Shown: in pieces, positions 2,498 through 49,048 of the stretch
How the letters are laid out: every line of letters begins with the position of its first letter
Position numbering within the stretch: the first letter of the stretch is position 1
Source of the DNA: Promethearchaeota archaeon
GTDB lineage: Archaea > Asgardarchaeota > Lokiarchaeia > Sigyniarchaeales > SOKP01
DNA length: 64,000 bases
Direction: 5' to 3'
Assembly: GCA_019058245.1 (NCBI GenBank)
Contig: JAHPZJ010000030.1
Span: 32,001-96,000 of the forward strand
Made by a program: the position numbers and the translations under genes
Notes under the pieces: model-generated
What the model was told of the DNA's origin: nothing
The model's database searches: none
What the model saw: only the letters and a program-made list of their open reading frames with translations

Positions 2498-3052
2498 TTA
2501 TGAATTCCAATAGTATTTAACTATGGTCCAACCCTCGTTTTTCCATGATTTATTTAAGTATTCATAATTTACTTCTTTATCAAGACACATTCCTATAAAT
2601 ACGATTGCCCACCCTATAGCTGTATGATACCAATTTTCCCATTCTCGATCCATATTTGTATACGTAAATTTTACTTCGTTATCACAGATAAATTCTGGCA
2701 TAATTTCACCAAAATTCATAGCCCTTCTGTGAAATCGTATATATCTCTCAACTGCAGATTCGATATCTTCTTTAATAACTGAAGACTGATATATTGATGA
2801 AAATGTTCTTTTTCCTTCCATCATACCCCATTGAACTAAGATTTTTGGATCATTTTTTGCTTCTATAAAACATAAAGCATTATAACATTCTTTATAATCT
2901 TCAAAAGGATACCATGCTGCGCTTAGAATTCGTTGTTTAAGAAATTCTTTTGCTTTATCTGAAAGTAACCTGTCATATTCACTTCTTTTTTGATGATTTG
3001 CTTTAATGGACTTTACAATTGTTAATATTGTCGCTCCTTTTATTTTTTCCAA
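2498..3052 (-). CDS. H-NOX/V4R-fold-like protein, array copy 4
   Basis: 184 aa paralog, TTG start with GGGGA SD. Confidence 0.8.
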   Translation of the reverse strand: MEKIKGATILTIVKSIKANHQKRSEYDRLLSDKAKEFLKQRILSAAWYPFEDYKECYNALCFIEAKNDPKILVQWGMMEGKRTFSSIYQSSVIKEDIESAVERYIRFHRRAMNFGEIMPEFICDNEVKFTYTNMDREWENWYHTAIGWAIVFIGMCLDKEVNYEYLNKSWKNEGWTIVKYYWNS

Positions 3053-3191
3053 ATAAATCCCCTTCTTAACTTAAATTGCTTTGTAATAAATTAACCTAAA
3101 CTTACTTTTTCCAATAAGAAAGTCTAGTGAGTTTTTCAAAATTATAATATAAAATTATTTATATAAACTTTTTTTTAAACTCAAAATTTCG

Positions 3192-6857: not shown

Positions 6858-8138
6858 ATGACAATTAGGGATAAATTAATTGGATCAGAAAAGCGTTCTT
6901 TTAAGAATGTTAATCAGGACAAGAATAGTATTGATGAACTTGGTCTTACAAAAGAACAACTTCTTTTAAATGATCTTAAAACTATTGCAAAAGAATATTT
7001 AGAGATTGAAAAATTGAAAAACTCTTTTGTAGATGTCATTTTGAAAAATTTAGATAATTTAGATTTTAATGAATTCATTGATTTTCCTAAGTTTTATATT
7101 AAAGAAGCAACTTTGAAAAAAAAAGTATCCTCCGCTAACATTCAGGGATTAAATGTTGTTAGTGTAGATGGAAGTTCTGTTACGAAGAAATTTATGAATG
7201 TAGATTTTTCATTTTTAAAAGCTATTGCAGTGAAATATTATTTTCAGAAAAATCATAATGCAAACATTGTTTATTATCCAGACCTTAGCGGATTTAATAA
7301 TTATTATGTACAAGGAAATTTCTTTAATCGAGATGATACTGCTATCGAAACAAAAATATCTATTGATATGACTTTCATGGAAATCAATCTATTAAATAGA
7401 TTAATAAAAAAGACTTCTGGAATTGACATGATAATAATTGATGGTTCGATTGTTATTATGCCTATAAATTTATTATTTTCTAAAGATCTTGAAATATCAA
7501 AAAAATATGATATATTATTGAAAGAGTATCATAAATTATATCTGAATTGTAAAGAAAAAGGTATTTTATTAATAGGTTCAATTAAAGATACGAGAACATC
7601 TGCTCTTTCTCACATTTTAAGAGACACAATTCAATTATTAAAACCTAATTATTCAAAATTAACGGATTTTATCACAATAAATTATCGAAATATAATTGAA
7701 TATTTTTCAGATGTAGATCTGTTCAATCGAGTTTTAAAAAAGGCTGAAAGAACGTGTATCTTTAATTGCAAGAGAGAAATTGATAAAATTAGAGATACTG
7801 GAATAAAAAAAGAAATTCCATACTACTTTCCTTTATCTTTTTATGCATTTTATCTAAAAACAACTCATTATGATATGCCATGTAGAATTGAATTCTTTAT
7901 GGAAGAAAAACATCAATATTTTAAAGCTTCAGAAACTGCAGACTTAATTTCCTCTATCCTTTTACCAATTTCAAGTTTAAATGAACATTATGGATTACCA
8001 ATCCCTCAAATTGAAGCCCATAAAAGAGCCGTCTTTAAACCAAAAGAAATTGATTTGTTATTCAATAACTTAAATAGAACTTTGAACATGCATGGCATTA
8101 AGTTATTAGAAAAAAGAAGAAACAGAAGACCTTTCTAA
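6858..8138 (+). CDS. nurA: NurA-family nuclease
   Basis: VSVDGS, IIIDGS, GSIKD and YGLPIPQIEAH motifs. Confidence 0.85.
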   Translation: MTIRDKLIGSEKRSFKNVNQDKNSIDELGLTKEQLLLNDLKTIAKEYLEIEKLKNSFVDVILKNLDNLDFNEFIDFPKFYIKEATLKKKVSSANIQGLNVVSVDGSSVTKKFMNVDFSFLKAIAVKYYFQKNHNANIVYYPDLSGFNNYYVQGNFFNRDDTAIETKISIDMTFMEINLLNRLIKKTSGIDMIIIDGSIVIMPINLLFSKDLEISKKYDILLKEYHKLYLNCKEKGILLIGSIKDTRTSALSHILRDTIQLLKPNYSKLTDFITINYRNIIEYFSDVDLFNRVLKKAERTCIFNCKREIDKIRDTGIKKEIPYYFPLSFYAFYLKTTHYDMPCRIEFFMEEKHQYFKASETADLISSILLPISSLNEHYGLPIPQIEAHKRAVFKPKEIDLLFNNLNRTLNMHGIKLLEKRRNRRPF

Positions 8139-8821
8139 CCAAAATTAATATTTAATCTATTTAAAATAAGATCCTCAAAAAATATATGCTCTTTTTTAAC
8201 GATTCTATTTTTGTATCCTAAGTTAACAATTTTTTTATTTAATTTTGATAAGTTTGTTCTACTAGAACTAATGTAATATATGTAATGTTCTTCTTTCAAA
8301 TCTAAAAAAAATTTAGCGTTGGAAAGAAAATCAATTAAAAGTTCATAACCTTTTGGTCCGCCATCCCAACTATAATCGATATATTGTTTATTTTGATTTT
8401 CTTTAATAAGAGAAGAGGAGGGTAAATATGGAGGATTAAAGATGATAATATTGAATGAATTTTCCAACTTTTTTGGAAAGGATTTAAATAAATCTGAATG
8501 TATTAAATTAATCTGCTTATAGATTTTATTTCTTTTCGCGTTTAACTTAGCACATTTTAGAGAATTTTCTAAAATGTCAGATCCATATATCAATGGGTTA
8601 AAATTTGGAATCTGCATCGCAATTAATCTTAAAAAGATAGAAATTATCCCAGTCCCAGTGCCAACATCAAGTATTTTTTTAATTTTACTCAATTTGATAC
8701 CATCAAAATTATCATAATTAATTTTGTGTTTAAAATAGTCTATTATTAAATAACTATCATCAGAAGGAGAGTAAACATCTTCAAAATCACAATAAATTAT
8801 TGGATCTGGTAAAGAAGGTAT
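8135..8821 (-). CDS. prmC: HemK2/N6AMT1-type release-factor glutamine methyltransferase (probable ATA start)
   Basis: LDVGTGTG, FNPPY, WDGG. The conserved VYxPxDDS motif is upstream of the track's TTG (8692); the frame is open to ATA at 8821 behind AGGCGA. Confidence 0.85.
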   Translation of the reverse strand: MPSLPDPIIYCDFEDVYSPSDDSYLIIDYFKHKINYDNFDGIKLSKIKKILDVGTGTGIISIFLRLIAMQIPNFNPLIYGSDILENSLKCAKLNAKRNKIYKQINLIHSDLFKSFPKKLENSFNIIIFNPPYLPSSSLIKENQNKQYIDYSWDGGPKGYELLIDFLSNAKFFLDLKEEHYIYYISSSRTNLSKLNKKIVNLGYKNRIVKKEHIFFEDLILNRLNINFG

Positions 8822-8847
8822 ATATATCGCCTAATATTATTTAAATT

Positions 8848-9693
8848 TTAAGAATAAAATACTTTGCTAATTTCAATAAGTTCATTTGGTGTAAAATTAA
8901 GTAATTTTTTATTTTCATAATTATTTTTCTGTAGAATCATAAGGATTTCTTCTTTTGTGTATTTTCTTTTAGTTAAAGCTTTAAAATAAATATCCAAAGC
9001 ATTTGAAATATTTTTATTTTTATAAGGCATTATTCCCGCTATAAATCTTAAAAAATAAGCTATTGAGTCTTTTTCCATTAAAAATGAATTAATTTCGGTC
9101 TTAGGTACTAATTTAATAAGTGATAATGATATTTTTGGAATGGGATAAAAGCTCATTCTCGAAATAGTAGATCTAGAAACAGGATTTACAAAAGCATTAG
9201 TATTAACACTAATTCTTGAATAATTTTTAGAATTTTCTGAGAAGAAGATTCTGTCAGCTATGTTTTTTTCAATCATTAAAACACCGATTGGTGGCTTATT
9301 TTTGAAAAATATTTTCTCTAAAATTGGACCTGTTATTGAATATGGAATATTTGATACTACCTTTGTATGAAAAGGAAGTTCTAATTCAAGCACATTTCCA
9401 TAAATAATCTCAATATTATCAAAATTTCTAAATTTTTCATCTAAATAAGAAAACAGACGATAATCAATTTCAATTGCATAAATCTTTTTAACATATTTTA
9501 CCAACTCTTCCGTTAAGGCGCCTAGACCAGGTCCAATTTCTAAAATGACATCATTTTTAGAGATTTCTGAAAATGATATAATTTTATTTACTATATTTTT
9601 ATCTATTAAGAAATTTTGTCCTAATTTTTTATTTGGATTTATTTTTAGTTGCTTTAAAATGAGTTGTACTTCTCTTTTATCCATAAAATTCAT
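8848..9693 (-). CDS. rsmA: 16S rRNA m6,2A dimethyltransferase (KsgA/Dim1)
   Basis: KKLGQNFL, LEIGPGLGALT, SNIPYSIT. Confidence 0.95.
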   Translation of the reverse strand: MNFMDKREVQLILKQLKINPNKKLGQNFLIDKNIVNKIISFSEISKNDVILEIGPGLGALTEELVKYVKKIYAIEIDYRLFSYLDEKFRNFDNIEIIYGNVLELELPFHTKVVSNIPYSITGPILEKIFFKNKPPIGVLMIEKNIADRIFFSENSKNYSRISVNTNAFVNPVSRSTISRMSFYPIPKISLSLIKLVPKTEINSFLMEKDSIAYFLRFIAGIMPYKNKNISNALDIYFKALTKRKYTKEEILMILQKNNYENKKLLNFTPNELIEISKVFYS

Positions 9694-10334
9694 TCATATT
9701 TTTGAGTCTTACTAAAAAGGTAATATTTTACGTCTCGTTGAAGTTCTTTAATAATTCTTTGTGCTATTAATCTTGCGGGATGAGATATACTAGTTCTATC
9801 CGCAATATCTTGAAATGTTCCGAATTTTTGTCTTTCTCTTGCTTCAAGAATTTCCCACATGTGTTTTTGCCCAACTCCAGGCAATAATTTTAAAGCATGC
9901 ATTCTTGGAGTTATTGAGGTAGAGTTATTAAAGAAATTGATAAACGTTTCCTCATACTTTAATACTTCATTTTCGAGAATTGGTTGTAATAATGCTTTTG
10001 ATGTACTTGTTAAATCATTGTAATCAATTTTTTTTAATACTTCTTTTAATTTTTCTTCATTAACGAATTCTTCATATGTTTTTTGTTCTTGTACTTCAAT
10101 AATAGAATTTTTATTTAATTTAACTTCGTAAAGTACAAAATCCGGAAAAGTAAGAACTTGAGCAATTGGAGTTTTAGCCCAGCTAGGCTTATCTTCTTCG
10201 GGATGTCCATGTATTAATGAATCTAAGACAACAACTTCCCGAAACTTCTTTATAAATTGCTTTTTCTTCTTTGGACCACCACGATAATCTTTTTTGCGTG
10301 GAGGATGTCGATATCTCTCTCTTCTTTCCATCAT
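9690..10334 (-). CDS. DUF655 family RNA-binding protein
   Basis: ITPRMHALKLLPGVGQK HhH motif; conserved position between rpoF and ksgA. Confidence 0.9.
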   Translation of the reverse strand: MMERRERYRHPPRKKDYRGGPKKKKQFIKKFREVVVLDSLIHGHPEEDKPSWAKTPIAQVLTFPDFVLYEVKLNKNSIIEVQEQKTYEEFVNEEKLKEVLKKIDYNDLTSTSKALLQPILENEVLKYEETFINFFNNSTSITPRMHALKLLPGVGQKHMWEILEARERQKFGTFQDIADRTSISHPARLIAQRIIKELQRDVKYYLFSKTQKYE

Positions 10335-10501
10335 TACTAGTTAACTGTTTTTTAACTTTTCCGATTACCATTTCAGAATTTTAATTGTAATAACCTACTA
10401 TAATAGTTGGGATTGTTCATTAGAATTATAGAGATTGAGACTTATAAATTCTTCTAATTTTATAGAAAATAATTGAATTTTTGCTACAAAAAAGATTTAA
10501 T

Positions 10502-10867
10502 TCAAGATGTTTTTATTTCTTCTATTTGGTATAGTATTTCTTGTAATTGCTGATCATTAAAAGTCTTTCCTACGAATGATTTTTCTAAAATCATCCGAAG
10601 TTCTGGGATTGTTTTTGGATTAATATTAATAATATTGATAGCATAAATTTCCTCAATCTCATATTTATCGATTAGCATTTTTTGTACTTTCTTAGCAGTT
10701 TTTGCATCGTATTTTGCAAATTTATTTACATAGTTATAGGTAATTTCTTGAAAATGGGACATTCCTTCATCAGCATCAATTTTTGATATTTGATCTTTTA
10801 TATTTTCCATTATTTCTTTAACTTCAGGTATAGAGACTATTTTTTCCTCTCTTTTTCTTCCAGACAT
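10502..10867 (-). CDS. rpoF: RNA polymerase subunit Rpo4/F
   Basis: VSIPEVKE..., YVNKFAK, NINPKTIPELR; synteny. Confidence 0.92.
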   Translation of the reverse strand: MSGRKREEKIVSIPEVKEIMENIKDQISKIDADEGMSHFQEITYNYVNKFAKYDAKTAKKVQKMLIDKYEIEEIYAINIININPKTIPELRMILEKSFVGKTFNDQQLQEILYQIEEIKTS

Positions 10868-10886: not shown

Positions 10887-11198
10887 TTAATTTTCTATTT
10901 TTGATATTGAATTTAATCTTAAATGTTCTCTGCCAATTATTAAAATCTTTTTAGAGTTCCCCAGTTTTATATCGACCAAATAGCATCGGCCTCTTTGACC
11001 AATAATAGTTCCTGTACGACCATGATACCTAGAGTGAGGCATTCCTCGCTTATGCTGGGAAGAATCTGTAATAATATCTACTTTATCATCAATTTTATAA
11101 TCTATTAGATACTTTTCAACAGAACTTAAACCTTTATCTCGGACATTTCTTCTATGTTTATGCCTTGTTTTTGTGCGATATCCTCTATGCTTAACTAT
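10887..11198 (-). CDS. rpl21e: 50S ribosomal protein L21e (not in ORF track; probable ATA start)
   Basis: Manual translation (M)VKHRGYRTKTRHKH...GMPHSRYHGRTGTIIGQRGRCY...REHLR, 103 aa, between pus10 and rpoF. Confidence 0.95.
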   Translation of the reverse strand: MVKHRGYRTKTRHKHRRNVRDKGLSSVEKYLIDYKIDDKVDIITDSSQHKRGMPHSRYHGRTGTIIGQRGRCYLVDIKLGNSKKILIIGREHLRLNSISKIEN

Positions 11199-11314
11199 TT
11201 CGAAACACCTTAAGAATGGTAATTGCGAAAATTAATCAATTGATTTAGTAGAATTATGTATTATAATTTATTTATTTTTTGATTTAAAATGAATTTTATG
11301 GGAAAAAATATACA

Positions 11315-12673
11315 TTACATTGATACTTCTAATACATCCAATTCCTTACATAATAAGTTAGTTTTAAAAATTTCTGAAAAAGAAGGAGAAGTACGTCCCT
11401 CGTCACCACTTATCAATTCTTTTATGTAAGTTCCTCCTTGAGATATTATTTTAAATTCAAATAAATTCGATTTTATAAACTTTCCTTCGATTTTATAAAT
11501 GATTTTTTCACGTATTTTATCAGCTCGCCGATGAGAAACCCTATTTGGTGTTCTTTGTTTAACTTCTTGATTATTAAATACTTTATTCAATTCTAGTAAT
11601 TTTTGATTAAATTGATTTTTACTAAACTTAGCTTCAGTCATAACGGTTGCTTTATAAAATTTTTTGGTGTTCTTTGCATTAGTCTTAAGTTTAATAACTT
11701 CATTCTTACTACTATATCTTAAATCTCTGATTTGAATCTTTTTTCTATTTTTTTTATTAACTTTTTTCTCAAGTTTGATTAAATCTAAATTTCTTTTTTT
11801 AGGATTTCTTAATTCAATGATAAAAGGTCTGCCTAACCCTAACATTCTTACATCAATATCTTCTCTTCCAGCTCCATGAAATTTGGAATCTTTTGAATTT
11901 GCTTCGTTAATAAAGTAAGGACTAATTAAGTCCTCCACACTCGTTAAATATTGTTTTCCCGTAAAATTGCACATTTCACAACCTTTTCCACTGCATTTCT
12001 TACAAAACCAATGTGTTTGTGGAATACCTCTAATTAATTTTTTATATCGTCCATATATGAAAAGAGATTTAAAGATAATTTCAAAATTAAAGGAATCATA
12101 ATCAATAGAATAGATAATCAAAATCTCAGGATTGTTGAATTCAGGAACTTTATCAATTGTTTTCATTAATTCTTTTCCTACAATTCGATTAAAGTGGCTT
12201 TTAAAGGATTCTGCTTCTAAAAGATTCAATTCTGCTTTAAATTTATCCTCACGGTTGATTATTCTTGATTTTGGACTTGTGCCAATTAAAAAGTTACTGA
12301 ATTCAATTTCCTTAAGTGCTTGTTTAGTTTCACTCACATATTTTTGTATATTATTAAAAATATTATTGCATAAATAACAAACTTGGTTTGAGTTATTTAG
12401 TGAATAATTTAATCCTTCTTTAGTTAAAACCTTCTGAGCTGGGTTATAATTAGCATTTACTGCAAGCAATTTCAAATTATTAATTGATACTTTCTGTAAA
12501 GTTTCATTTCCTCCAAGATAATTTTTATGATTTTCCATTGTTATTGCTAGTAATAATGAATTTCCTCTCTCGTAGTTAGTTGTACTTGTTCCTAGTAGAG
12601 AAAACATTCTGCCCAAGCAGTGAATACAAATATAATATTTCTGATAAATTTCTAGAACCTTATCGAAAATCAT
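11315..12673 (-). CDS. pus10: tRNA pseudouridine(54/55) synthase Pus10
   Basis: CIHCLGR, FHGAGREDIDVRMLG, QRTPNRV, GGTYIKELISGD. Confidence 0.95.
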   Translation of the reverse strand: MIFDKVLEIYQKYYICIHCLGRMFSLLGTSTTNYERGNSLLLAITMENHKNYLGGNETLQKVSINNLKLLAVNANYNPAQKVLTKEGLNYSLNNSNQVCYLCNNIFNNIQKYVSETKQALKEIEFSNFLIGTSPKSRIINREDKFKAELNLLEAESFKSHFNRIVGKELMKTIDKVPEFNNPEILIIYSIDYDSFNFEIIFKSLFIYGRYKKLIRGIPQTHWFCKKCSGKGCEMCNFTGKQYLTSVEDLISPYFINEANSKDSKFHGAGREDIDVRMLGLGRPFIIELRNPKKRNLDLIKLEKKVNKKNRKKIQIRDLRYSSKNEVIKLKTNAKNTKKFYKATVMTEAKFSKNQFNQKLLELNKVFNNQEVKQRTPNRVSHRRADKIREKIIYKIEGKFIKSNLFEFKIISQGGTYIKELISGDEGRTSPSFSEIFKTNLLCKELDVLEVSM

Positions 12674-31815: not shown

Positions 31816-32991
31816 TTGATCTTATCAAAAAAGTCTGTTATTTTAATTCTATTATCTGTTTTTATTGTAAATACAGCCTCAATTACCCTTATAACATATT
31901 TACCTAGATATTTAGAATATTTAAGTATAGAAAGACCATTAATACAACTGGTCATTACTATTTTTCCTTTAACTTCTTTTGTTTTTCCACCGATATATGG
32001 CCATTATTCAGATAAAATTCAAAAGAGGTATATTTTTATTTTTATTGGATTTCTTGGGATGTCTTTTATTTATTTTTTATTGCTATTTCTGAACCAAAAT
32101 TTATTCATCCTAGTACTATTAATATTCATTTTTGGTTTTTTTATGGGATCATATAGCTTATTATTAACCCTTTTCGCTGAATTAGTAGAAGATGATAAGA
32201 CTTTCATTTCTTACTTCAATGCATCAGTTGTTGCTGGTTGGTTTGTTGGAGCTCAATCTGGTGGTATTTTTATTGATATCTATGGAATTGAGAAGATATT
32301 CTTGTTTGCTTTCCTAGTTTTTTTACCAAACTTAATTATAATGTTTTTTATAAAAGAAAAAAGATCATTGATTTTAGAAAGTTTTAATAGAGAAACAGAG
32401 AAAAACTCAAATGATCTTGTTTTAAATAATAATCAAGGAGATATTTCAATTTCTAAATCAATTTATCCCGGTTTATTTTTCAGAAATTTTAGTCTCAAAT
32501 CAATTTTGCCAGTATTGGTAATTATTATGGGGATTCATTTAAGTAGTGATACAGAAATTGGATTTTTGATTGGAATAAATTTTTTTTTACAATTCTTCCA
32601 GATGTTATTAATTGGAAAGATATTAACTAATGATAATCTTAAATCTTTTATGATCATTGGCTATGCTTTAAGCACAATTACAATTTTTGGATATATAATC
32701 TCAACTAATTTTTGGAGCTTTTTAGTTTGCCAATTTTTAGTTTCTTTTAGCTATTCTCTGCATTGGGCAGCAACAGTAACTTACATCTCTAAAAAAACTT
32801 CACCCAAAAATAAAGGAAAATATATGGCTTTTGCGAATTCAAGTGTTTTCTCAGGAAGTTTTGCAGGTGGTATATTATTCAGCTTATTATTATCTGCTTT
32901 TAATTCTAATTATTATATTGTTATGTATTTTATGATAATATTCCCCGCAATTTCCACTTTTATAATTCTCCTTAAATTCAAGCCTGACTAA
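31816..32991 (+). CDS. MFS transporter (paralog 3)
   Basis: GHYSDKIQKR; colinear with neighbours. Confidence 0.88.
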   Translation: MILSKKSVILILLSVFIVNTASITLITYLPRYLEYLSIERPLIQLVITIFPLTSFVFPPIYGHYSDKIQKRYIFIFIGFLGMSFIYFLLLFLNQNLFILVLLIFIFGFFMGSYSLLLTLFAELVEDDKTFISYFNASVVAGWFVGAQSGGIFIDIYGIEKIFLFAFLVFLPNLIIMFFIKEKRSLILESFNRETEKNSNDLVLNNNQGDISISKSIYPGLFFRNFSLKSILPVLVIIMGIHLSSDTEIGFLIGINFFLQFFQMLLIGKILTNDNLKSFMIIGYALSTITIFGYIISTNFWSFLVCQFLVSFSYSLHWAATVTYISKKTSPKNKGKYMAFANSSVFSGSFAGGILFSLLLSAFNSNYYIVMYFMIIFPAISTFIILLKFKPD

Positions 32992-32996
32992 AAAAT

Positions 32997-34964
32997 TCAG
33001 TTCCTATACCAAAAAGGAGAGAGCTTCTGGATTATTGCTTTAGGTTTATCAGGAATTAATTCTAATTGATTTCTTATCCAATCTGAAATCCATTTATATT
33101 TTTCTTTAAATCGACTGTCCATGAAAATTATTGCCCCTTTATCCGAGATCTTTCTAATAGGTCTTCCAGAAGCTTGATTAGCTCGTTGAACTGCGGGATA
33201 TAAATAAGCAAAATTCCATCCTTGTTTTTTAAATACCTTATCATAATAATCGATTTTTGCTTCAACTCTAGGAGTTGGTAGATGATATGGAAATCCGGCA
33301 ATTATCACAGAGTTCATTAAATTTCCCGGATAATCTTCTCCTTCTGAATTTCTGCCACCACATACTCCTAATAAAACAGCACCCCCATTTAAAGCCATAC
33401 TTTTAAAGTCGTCGACCAATACAGCATTTTCAGAAGCAGATAATCCAGGTTCTTCAACAAATAATTTTTTATTATTATTTTGTACTATAATTTCTAAACC
33501 GTGTTCTACAAGCGCATTTAAAATTCTATATGAAGCACAAAAAATTCCCACGTTTGCTGGGGTACACAGCAAAACTTCATTTATTTTTTCAATCATCTTT
33601 TTAAACATCATTGGTATTCTATTATTTCTTTTTGTGTCAACTCCTTCGATTATAAGAGCTTTAATATTTTTACTACTAAATGGTGAATCTGCTATAATAC
33701 CTTTATAACTCTTTCCACACTCATTTAATCCCATTAAATTATTAAATACATAAGGATTCACTGTACCAGAGAGATTCAAACAGGTGTATACTCTTTTCAA
33801 GAGAGGAATAGAAATTTCTCTTGGATCTAATGCTACTATTTCAAGAGATATTGATCTCTTTCCTTTTATCATTTTCAGATTATAGCAATAAAAATAATTA
33901 TCCAAAGTATAGGTATTCAACCATTTCATCCAAAATTCTGCCAAGGAACCAACATAGTCTCTTGAAATTTCGCCATTAGCGATTTTTTCTTCATGAATGG
34001 ATACACTATAATCAAGTAATTCTTCAATAAAGTTTTTAAATCCGTTTAAATCTTTAAATCCCAATTTTTTATAAATTTCACCTAATAGTTTTTCAGGCAC
34101 AATCGCTACTTCTTTAATTTTGAGACTCTTTTTTTTTTCATCTAATTGATCTAATAGAATTTTCACAAAACTCTGCATTAAGATAGGAGATCTATACATT
34201 TCTAGATCTTTTAAACTGACTCTTAATGAATATGGGGTAATTTTTTTTGAATTTACTTCTGTAGCAACATCAATTATATTATGACATTCATCCAATACTA
34301 TAATACAGTTTTGAAGCTCTTGTCCAATAAATTCTAAAAAAGAATCTCGAATAAATGGATTGAAAATCCATTGATAATTACATATAATTATATTCATCTT
34401 TTCAAGCAGGAATTTACTTAAGAAATAAGGGCAAAACTTCTTTTCTTTACAAAAATTTATCAAATCTTCTGCATCGACTGGCTTATTAAATAAGTCTGGT
34501 GCGATTGATATTGGATTTTCATTTTGTCCTTTCTTTTTTAACAAATTCAAAAAGTAGCTACAATTCCTATTTTTTCTTAAATCTCCACAAACAGACATAG
34601 CTTCACTGGGATTTAGCTTAAGAGATATCAATGTTTCATTTAGGCACATCTCATTTCTCCCTCTTATAGATAAAGCGTTGAGTTTGATTCCCAGATTCTC
34701 ATCAATTACCTTTTGTGAGATTTTTACTAATTCTTTTATAATTCTACGATTTTGAGAATGAGTTCGACACATATATATTATTTTTAAATCTTTTTCATAA
34801 GCTAAAGGTAATAATCCACATAAAGCAATTATTGTCTTTCCTGTTCCATTAGGAGCTAATAATAGAGAAATTTTTTTAGATCTAGAACTTATTTCAATTT
34901 GATTAGTAATGTTTTCTTGATTTTCTCTGAATCGCTCGTAGGGAAAAAATGATGAATAGTTTAT
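32997..34964 (-). CDS. xpd: XPD/Rad3 Fe-S DNA helicase (probable ATA start, 655 aa)
   Basis: Q motif FPYERFRENQ and Walker A APNGTGKT lie upstream of the track's ATG (34772); Fe-S cysteines, DECHN, SGT, QASGRPIR. Confidence 0.92.
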   Translation of the reverse strand: MNYSSFFPYERFRENQENITNQIEISSRSKKISLLLAPNGTGKTIIALCGLLPLAYEKDLKIIYMCRTHSQNRRIIKELVKISQKVIDENLGIKLNALSIRGRNEMCLNETLISLKLNPSEAMSVCGDLRKNRNCSYFLNLLKKKGQNENPISIAPDLFNKPVDAEDLINFCKEKKFCPYFLSKFLLEKMNIIICNYQWIFNPFIRDSFLEFIGQELQNCIIVLDECHNIIDVATEVNSKKITPYSLRVSLKDLEMYRSPILMQSFVKILLDQLDEKKKSLKIKEVAIVPEKLLGEIYKKLGFKDLNGFKNFIEELLDYSVSIHEEKIANGEISRDYVGSLAEFWMKWLNTYTLDNYFYCYNLKMIKGKRSISLEIVALDPREISIPLLKRVYTCLNLSGTVNPYVFNNLMGLNECGKSYKGIIADSPFSSKNIKALIIEGVDTKRNNRIPMMFKKMIEKINEVLLCTPANVGIFCASYRILNALVEHGLEIIVQNNNKKLFVEEPGLSASENAVLVDDFKSMALNGGAVLLGVCGGRNSEGEDYPGNLMNSVIIAGFPYHLPTPRVEAKIDYYDKVFKKQGWNFAYLYPAVQRANQASGRPIRKISDKGAIIFMDSRFKEKYKWISDWIRNQLELIPDKPKAIIQKLSPFWYRN

Positions 34965-47721: not shown

Positions 47722-48106
47722 AAATCTACATATTTTTATTCATACTATTCAATATCTCAGTTTTATTTTAAAAATTATTTATTTTTTAGGCTATTATGTT
47801 TTTAATTCAAAAAATTAAAAATATTATAATATTTATTAGTTAAGAATATAAAATAATAATTTTATAAATTAATTAACTGAAAGAAGATACTTAAATAATT
47901 TTAGTTGATAAAAAATTCGAAGAAGAAGAGCAGCATCAAATGCTACGGAAGGTAAATTCATTGAAAAATTTCGGGCAGTTATAGATGATAATACCTCCCT
48001 TACTATCTATAATAAAAAAAAAAGATCATTTTGCATTATACGAAGGGATTTAGCAAAATCTTATGAAATTGAGGTTGATGCTTCTGAAGCACCAATATTA
48101 AATAAG

Positions 48107-49048
48107 ATGTTAAGTGATCCAGAACCCTATGAAAGCTCAATTGCAGATGTTAAAATCTTAGAGGATGAAATATTCCCAATAAATGAAGCATTTCTGAAAA
48201 TATTTGGAGACGATAAAGATCTAAAACTAAACTCAATCAAATTAGCTATTGGCAGCAATTACAATGACTATGTTACAATTGAAGAGAGTGATTTAGTTAA
48301 ATTTGACGTTAAACCAACTCTTACTGGTTTATTAGATTTTATCAAAGGTAATAGGGAAAGTATTTTAGGATTTTTAGATTGTGAATATATTAGTGAAGAA
48401 GGTAATGTTATTTACTTAAATTGTGGAAAAAAGAATGTATCTGAGAATGTGTATTCTATAAAAGTCCTGATTCTAGCTTCTATGCAACAGAGAGGATTTT
48501 TTCTTCAGCAAGAACACAAATACTATGGTCTTCAGCTTTATATTATTATAGAATCAAGAACACCTAATGATAATTTATTGCTTGAGTTATTAAAAGAATT
48601 AAATATAGATTGGGAAGTAATGTTTTTTAGAAGAAAACTGGCAATTCATGATTGGACTGAGATTGAATGTGAAAAAAACTCTGAAAATCTTAAAAGTTTT
48701 CTTCGTGCTAAATATGAATCTTTAAATTATTTTGATGTGAATAATATTATTCGTCTAGTTGTTAAAAATCAATTGCCATTCAAAGTAGCAAATAAAATGG
48801 CTTCTTTATTATATAAAATGAAAAGTGAAAGATCCCTTAGATTTCATGAAAAAAAATTCCAGGAAAATCCATATGAAAATGACCCGGTACAACAAGATGA
48901 ATATTCCATAACTCTTAAAAAAGCAGAAGTAGCTGCTGCAGCAAAATTAGCATGTGCATATTTAGGAATTCAAAAGAAAATTAAATTCGATAGAGATATT
49001 TCTGTGGATGAAATACTGAAATATGAAGCAGAAATAAATAATATGTGA
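48107..49048 (+). CDS. Hypothetical protein (may extend 5' to ~47960)
   Basis: 313-aa ORF; frame open upstream to 47912; no recognised motif. Confidence 0.7.
   Translation: MLSDPEPYESSIADVKILEDEIFPINEAFLKIFGDDKDLKLNSIKLAIGSNYNDYVTIEESDLVKFDVKPTLTGLLDFIKGNRESILGFLDCEYISEEGNVIYLNCGKKNVSENVYSIKVLILASMQQRGFFLQQEHKYYGLQLYIIIESRTPNDNLLLELLKELNIDWEVMFFRRKLAIHDWTEIECEKNSENLKSFLRAKYESLNYFDVNNIIRLVVKNQLPFKVANKMASLLYKMKSERSLRFHEKKFQENPYENDPVQQDEYSITLKKAEVAAAAKLACAYLGIQKKIKFDRDISVDEILKYEAEINNM

Follow-up and report, generated by a model that had tools for sequence, protein, structure and literature searches.

In Escherichia coli, pcnB has a near-cognate start codon. There, as in bacterial infC, an Ile near-cognate codon stands behind a Shine-Dalgarno (SD) sequence, and the fidelity factor encoded by infC carries a weak codon, as aIF1 does in the archaea described below. 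Bacterial IF3 (infC, AUU start) and eukaryotic eIF1 both regulate themselves via weak starts (PMC4705826, PMC6237735). Reviews of archaeal translation give AUG, GUG, and UUG as start codons and describe SD sequences as uncommon in Lokiarchaea (PMC7531240, PMC12993045). For Saccharolobus and Pyrococcus, with SD-positioned initiation that involves aIF1, aIF1A, and aIF2 and accepts mismatches at codon position 1, the literature lists AUG, GUG, and UUG only, and in vitro work shows archaeal aIF1 selecting against AUU (PMC7531240, PMC6237735, PMC4705826). Ribosome profiling of Haloferax volcanii yielded 160 putative alternative sites, of which about 30% were near-cognate codons that the authors set aside as possible false positives (PMC7261190).

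The locus described here shares features with each of these systems and differs from all of them. Near-cognate starts in E. coli, such as those of infC and pcnB, are limited to a handful of genes, whereas here they would affect about 3% of all genes, comprise five codons, toggle between species, and operate with the archaeal aIF1 and aIF2. In contrast to Saccharolobus and Pyrococcus, mismatches at codon position 3 are common and occur on essential genes. Archaeal ribosomes have been seen at codons one base off AUG in Haloferax (PMC7261190), but the codons described here appear to be the main, conserved starts of housekeeping genes. In eukaryotes, the homologous fidelity factor is likewise weakly started (PMC4705826); however, eIF1 autoregulation relies on scanning and an AUG in poor context, while aIF1 here has an SD and AUU, and any feedback is putative. 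A literature search, mainly of open-access papers, retrieved no report of a near-cognate start trait in Asgard archaea.

An rpl21e gene without a canonical start codon

The stretch analyzed here (hereafter, the window) comprises 64,000 nucleotides of a Promethearchaeota archaeon (GTDB lineage Asgardarchaeota; Lokiarchaeia; Sigyniarchaeales; SOKP01), positions 32,001 to 96,000 of the forward strand of contig JAHPZJ010000030.1 in assembly GCA_019058245.1. It contains rpl21e (eL21) as a single intact gene within the conserved cluster Pus10-L21e-RpoF-DUF655-KsgA (Table 1). The minus strand at 11211-11187 reads AAGGTG-TTTCGAA-ATA-GTT-AAG-CAT; ATG, GTG, and TTG are absent from the upstream in-frame stop to codon 53, and the first TTG in this frame is codon 74. 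The original prediction of a complete rpl21e that lacks a canonical start is confirmed. The product matches PF01157 at positions 3-97 of 101 and NCBIfam PRK04306 with 107 bits (cut-off, 97) over residues 3-95, and its alignment with the eL21 chains in solved ribosome structures begins at residue 2-5; a start at codon 53 would cost half of the family profile. Three versions of the protein were looked for as exact matches in a sequence collection, and none was present. Because Pus10 ends 116 nt before the ATA, translational coupling of rpl21e to Pus10 was rejected.

Table 1. Features of the rpl21e locus and of other genes with non-canonical starts (positions within the window)
Feature	Position	Strand	Remarks
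rpl21e (eL21) CDS	10887..11198	minus	103 codons, ATA to TAA
ATA start codon of rpl21e (predicted)	11196..11198	minus	aligns with ATG/TTG/GTG/ATT/ATC/CTG in 89 family loci
Shine-Dalgarno site AAGGTG of rpl21e	11206..11211	minus	7 nt before ATA; complementary to 16S 3' tail of a congener
In-frame TAA upstream of rpl21e	11232..11234	minus	12 codons before ATA; excludes an upstream start
First in-frame ATG of rpl21e, codon 53	11040..11042	minus	a start here drops PF01157 positions 3-51
Pus10, upstream neighbor	11315..12673	minus	ATG start; end 116 nt before rpl21e ATA
RpoF, DUF655, KsgA/Dim1, downstream neighbors	8848..10867	minus	all ATG-started; gene order conserved
XPD/Rad3 helicase	32997..34964	minus	ATA start at 34964, 7 nt after GGTG (34975-34972)
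HemK2-type methyltransferase	8135..8827	minus	ATA 8827 or ATA 8821; weak SD AGGCG
377-codon gene, no known family	47915..49048	plus	fourth case in the window; ATT right after stop, degenerate SD

Three more genes in the window appear to start at near-cognate codons. XPD shows the same combination of SD and ATA, as had been noted before: its Walker A motif lies upstream of the first ATG, and all eight orthologues carry either ATA or ATT at the start position. HemK2 needs a non-canonical start, too, because a TAG lies just upstream of it and the next canonical codon, the TTG at codon 46, comes after residue 13-16, where the family models set in. That part of the earlier claim stands, but HemK2 does not have the same SD pattern: it has a weak SD and two candidate ATAs, of which ATA 8821 is the more likely one by spacing. 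The 377-codon gene has no Pfam or NCBIfam match, though it is conserved, with ATT at the start in 6 of 6 genomes and the first ATG about 64 codons further. A survey of orthologues for about 85 genes of this contig gave five near-cognate cases and revealed toggles between ATG and ATH (ATA, ATT, or ATC) in relatives, in agreement with the genome-wide rate given below. As for the roughly ten TTG- or GTG-started genes that had been listed alongside, they are plausible, about five in the window have orthologue support, and all of these are ordinary archaeal starts.

The window also contains three tandem paralogous open reading frames of about 190 codons each (minus strand, 852-1430, 1688-2293, and 2498-3070); no Pfam family matches the first of them, and they are present at few neighbors' loci.

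Conservation of codon 1 and the genome-wide excess

Among 90 family loci, including the present one, codon 1 of rpl21e is ATA in 24, ATG in 22, TTG in 16, ATT in 11, ATC in 8, and CTG and GTG in 4 each. Thus, 89 loci have a codon with at most one mismatch from ATG at the orthologous Met position, and the remaining one has an ATG one codon upstream. An ordinary hydrophobic residue at this position would be encoded mostly by TTA, CTT, GTT, or GTA, as in the gene body. None of these is found in the 90 loci: the Leu and Val codons at codon 1 are TTG, CTG, or GTG in 24 of 24 cases, compared with 103 of 780 (13%) in internal columns, which indicates a start-capable set. Within the same genus (which includes Loki_b32, Hel_238_bin13, bin108, and bin132), ATA, ATT, ATC, or CTG is found in 39 of 51 loci, and the tree of this short gene, which is weakly supported, implies a minimum of 20 changes of codon and 10 of residue class, all of them within the start-capable set. 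Outside the family, rpl21e starts with ATG, TTG, or GTG in all 43 readable loci.

In raw counts, the near-cognate codons go together with the SD. A GGTG motif is located 6-8 nt ahead of codon 1 in 44 of the 47 near-cognate loci, at a distance of 7 nt in 36 of these 44, and ahead of 7 of the 22 ATG-started orthologues (Fisher P = 2e-7, kinship ignored; strong branches offer just 2 independent pairs in which SD and codon type can be compared). The motif is complementary to the 16S rRNA 3' tail of a congener, G043 (GAUCACCUCC); the organism's own 16S gene is not in this assembly. In G043, a single-contig genome, the 16S match consists of a 123-nt 3' piece only (G043:C1:871810-871932; L317), and there is none in G044, so that the 16S gene of these two genomes may be split or misassembled.

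In this genome, 2,861 genes were called, and [AG]GGTG sites at gene heads were scored at SD spacing. The codon so positioned is canonical (ATG, GTG, or TTG) in 105 heads, near-cognate in 89 (ATA, 36; ATT, 29; ATC, 15; CTG, 6; ACG, 3), and neither in 39. Near-cognate codons account for a share of 0.70 of the non-canonical heads; for the motif inside genes, the share is 0.22, and out of frame it is 0.14 (P = 5e-28). Their spacing peaks at 6-7 nt after GGTG, the same as that of canonical starts. Residue 2 is Ser or Thr after 33% of the near-cognate starts, after 24% of ATG starts, and at 12% of internal positions. No in-frame canonical codon is available upstream in 56 of the 89 candidates, and 40 of these 56 also lack one in the next ten codons; the other 33 do have one, which in most cases is the GTG contained in the SD. 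In a set of 20 candidates, hand-picked as recognizable, the Pfam or NCBIfam match starts before the next canonical codon in 18; in some of these 18, the GTG within the SD is in frame as well. This set includes uL16, aIF5A, IleRS, ThiF, a Gtr1/RagA-type GTPase, and a CTG-started subunit of the electron transfer flavoprotein (ETF). When all GGTG sites are counted, the excess amounts to about 87 genes, which corresponds to about 36% of the genes led by GGTG and to 3% of the total, and in six congeners near-cognate starts make up 30% of GGTG-led genes and 2.9% of all genes. The majority of genes in this genome have no SD match and start with ATG, and the main ribosomal operon is mostly ATG-started.

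Two individual cases may be mentioned here. Contigs C27 and C13 of this assembly carry at least three paralogues beginning with ISIDW, all with an ATT start after GGTG. The Gtr1/RagA-type GTPase and an HdrC-like gene have ACG starts.

For comparison between genomes, the ratio of near-cognate to canonical codons is 105:156 here. In a sister-family genome and three genomes from other Asgard classes, the respective ratios are 3:17, 1:16, 1:25, and 3:36 (sum, 8:94), from small samples of 120-400 kb each and 0.8 Mb in all. Frame-free counting of SD, spacer, and ATH combinations is too noisy for screening many genomes. On present sampling, the high near-cognate rate is a family-level trait rather than an Asgard-wide one, with perhaps a low background elsewhere. 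As read from the gene heads, it is not AUA-specific either, given that ATT, ATC, CTG, and ACG are used, too. The proposal of a systematically relaxed start selection therefore survives for the family, as SD-directed near-cognate starts on about 3% of genes, nearly all with GGTG, but not in its AUA-specific or Asgard-wide form.

Initiation machinery and alternative explanations

A gene for aIF1 was found in 48 of 53 congeners, and aIF1A, aIF2 beta, and aIF2 gamma are present in 4 of 4 complete congeners. The aIF1 gene is missing from the present assembly; the absence of aIF1, aIF1A, and aIF2 from it fits its 76% completeness. Loss of an initiation factor as the cause is not supported for aIF1, aIF1A, or aIF2 beta and gamma. 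The initiator tRNA of the congeners is canonical (A1-U72, three G-C pairs, CAU), as is their anti-SD, so neither an altered initiator tRNA nor an altered anti-SD was found as a cause. Inspection of aIF1 and the initiator tRNA, which the original prediction had singled out, thus showed both to be present in congeners and normal in appearance. The family aIF1 retains the basic residues of loop 1; the Cys of the ACGG motif (before GGT), which is retained by most aIF1 proteins, is changed to Ser in 42 of 44 family loci, but the same change is seen in both sister-family loci, where the near-cognate rate is low, and no family-specific aIF1 defect was found. KsgA loss was rejected as a cause, as a full-length KsgA gene is present in the rpl21e cluster. 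TiaS loss was rejected as well: the sister family and one outside family also lack TiaS and have low rates.

The tRNA genes show some peculiarities of their own. Initiator tRNA genes of the genus (L190, L191, L192, L196, L198, and L199) have no intron, an intron in the anticodon loop, or extra 3'-half inserts, and in several congeners an initiator tRNA match is found on the same contig as aIF1. The tRNA genes of the present assembly mostly have introns at unusual positions, and ARAGORN misnames several of them ("Ile-AAT," "Pyl").

The ATA could be an artifact of an assembly error turning G into A, or the gene could be a pseudogene whose functional counterpart lies in another part of a genome that is just 76% complete in this assembly. 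However, the rpl21e region is identical, with zero mismatches, in contigs from four SRA runs, and this base-for-base match makes a consensus error at the ATA very unlikely. Nor is there another rpl21e copy with ATG in the assembly: this gene is its sole L21e, and a single match with an intact frame is the case in nearly all of the 126 family genomes with a match. (A second, divergent L21e with 42% identity, found in one congener at G065:C39:6183-6464, is probably contamination, estimated at 8%.) Cross-species conservation, with ATA in 18 other genomes of the genus and ATT, ATC, or CTG in 20 more, refutes this explanation, which we regard as having practically no chance of being right. A reassignment of AUA to Met, as in some mitochondria, could draw on the absence of TiaS, the usual archaeal enzyme that makes AUA mean Ile, from 91 genomes of the class besides the present one (and from families f8, f23, and f24). 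It is refuted by the internal ATA codons, which, like ATT and ATC, align with Ile (70%) and hardly ever with Met (1.9%) over 3,684 positions. Moreover, congeners have an intron-containing tRNA with a UAU anticodon (L477:1479-1602, L475:1385-1540), and reassignment would leave ATT, ATC, CTG, and ACG starts unexplained; its probability is negligible. The absence of TiaS and the presence of this tRNA bear on elongation. The true start might also be a canonical codon elsewhere, either the GTG within GGTG or one supplied by an upstream exon, by RNA editing, or by a frameshift, so that the ATA would be an internal Ile codon or an edited one. The motif's GTG is indeed in frame in some loci, and many HemK2 relatives have an in-frame GTG at the corresponding place. 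At the present rpl21e, however, the 7-nt spacer puts it out of frame, the TGA within the XPD motif is an in-frame stop, and the 56 candidates devoid of any upstream canonical codon do not fit. No single rule of editing or splicing converts ATA, ATT, ATC, CTG, and ACG, and the DNA upstream is not conserved as coding, which leaves such a start very improbable.

A more substantial alternative is that stringency is ordinary and the weak codons reflect gene-specific regulation, which keeps certain genes low or ties them to the aIF1 level, as in E. coli infC and pcnB. One case in its favor is aIF1 itself, which starts with ATT (35), ATA (6), or ATC (1) in all 42 family loci and has no canonical codon before the zinc knuckle in 32 of the 42. 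Its SD spacing is longer, at 9-10 nt (e.g., L099:1426-1740), its starts are non-ATG across the class, with ATA or TTG in other families, and 5 of 23 other Asgard loci have ATA or CTG. Several translation genes (eL21, uL15, uL16, aIF5A, and IleRS) are on the list, too. However, that list is mixed and extends to hydrogenase, ETF, USP, ThiF, and GTPases; seven different codons occur at the start of rpl21e, among them ATG in 22 of the 90 loci, unlike a fixed setting; and a ribosomal protein must be made in stoichiometric amounts. A search of 51 genomes for a conserved hairpin in the leader, or for a structure that masks the SD, was negative (median z, -0.4). Gene-specific regulation is therefore an unlikely explanation of the list as a whole, although it may apply to aIF1 alone.

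Proposed mechanism and consequences

We consider it very probable that pairing between GGUG and the anti-SD positions the codon in the P site firmly enough for the initiator tRNA to be accepted with one mismatch, and that AT pressure then lets SD-led starts drift. According to this proposal, rpl21e would be a normal essential gene whose AUA is read by the ordinary initiator Met-tRNA to yield Met-Val-Lys-His. GGUG would pair with the 16S tail and keep in the P site a codon that lies 6-8 nt downstream. Such a hold would suffice in this family for a mismatch at position 1 (CUG, UUG, and GUG) or position 3 (AUA, AUU, and AUC), with position-2 mismatches (ACG) accepted rarely. In an AT-rich genome, SD-led starts would drift among these codons, whereas genes that have no SD would keep AUG. 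From the patterns described above we infer that near-cognate codons are actually used for initiation, by the initiator tRNA and at lowered stringency. Start discrimination would be lowered rather than abolished: aIF1 is retained, and its own weak AUU start points to continued discrimination with a reduced set point. This layout resembles the feedback loop of bacterial infC, a speculative parallel; by analogy, the conserved ATH start makes aIF1 a candidate for infC-like autoregulation.

For annotation, the effect depends on the pipeline. In four contigs of this species, the gene calls lack L21e between Pus10 and RpoF and shorten HemK2 to 185 amino acids (aa); for ABR06, three sources give an L21e of 77 aa only. 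In three of the four genomes checked (Hel_238_bin13, bin108, and bin132), the NCBI record annotates L21e at full length, the genomic codon being ATA or ATC, and NCBI records sometimes place the start at a different codon (P0015, P0021, and P0038). In NCBI translation table 11, ATA, ATC, ATT, and CTG are listed as alternative initiators. The use of these starts likewise yields ATA or ATC for L21e, but as a silent annotation choice that describes no lineage trait and does not cover ACG. The anticipated loss or truncation of genes in Asgard annotations is thus real in ab initio calls, where L21e is missed or shortened, but does not extend to those three NCBI records. Ab initio calls drop eL21 or clip N-terminal domains, such as the P-loop of the Rag-like GTPase, ThiF, ferredoxin, and zinc motifs, which can result in false gene absences and in truncated eukaryotic-signature proteins. 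The view that SD sequences are rare in Lokiarchaea is still broadly right; SD counts for this family, though, would miss or misplace about one-third of the GGTG-led genes.

Beyond these practical aspects, we tentatively raise the possibility, which we think is rather less likely than not to be correct, of a start-stringency dial, in which AUU-initiated aIF1 would set the translation of about 100 SD-led AUH, CUG, and ACG genes, while SD-less genes stay with AUG. This would be an archaeal counterpart of the eIF1-type global control that eukaryotes exert on non-AUG initiation. Asgard archaea are the archaea closest to eukaryotes, and a family among them that appears to start a few percent of its genes, including those for ribosomal proteins, IleRS, and aIF1, at AUA, AUU, AUC, CUG, and ACG would provide a natural test of how the stringency of start codon selection is set.
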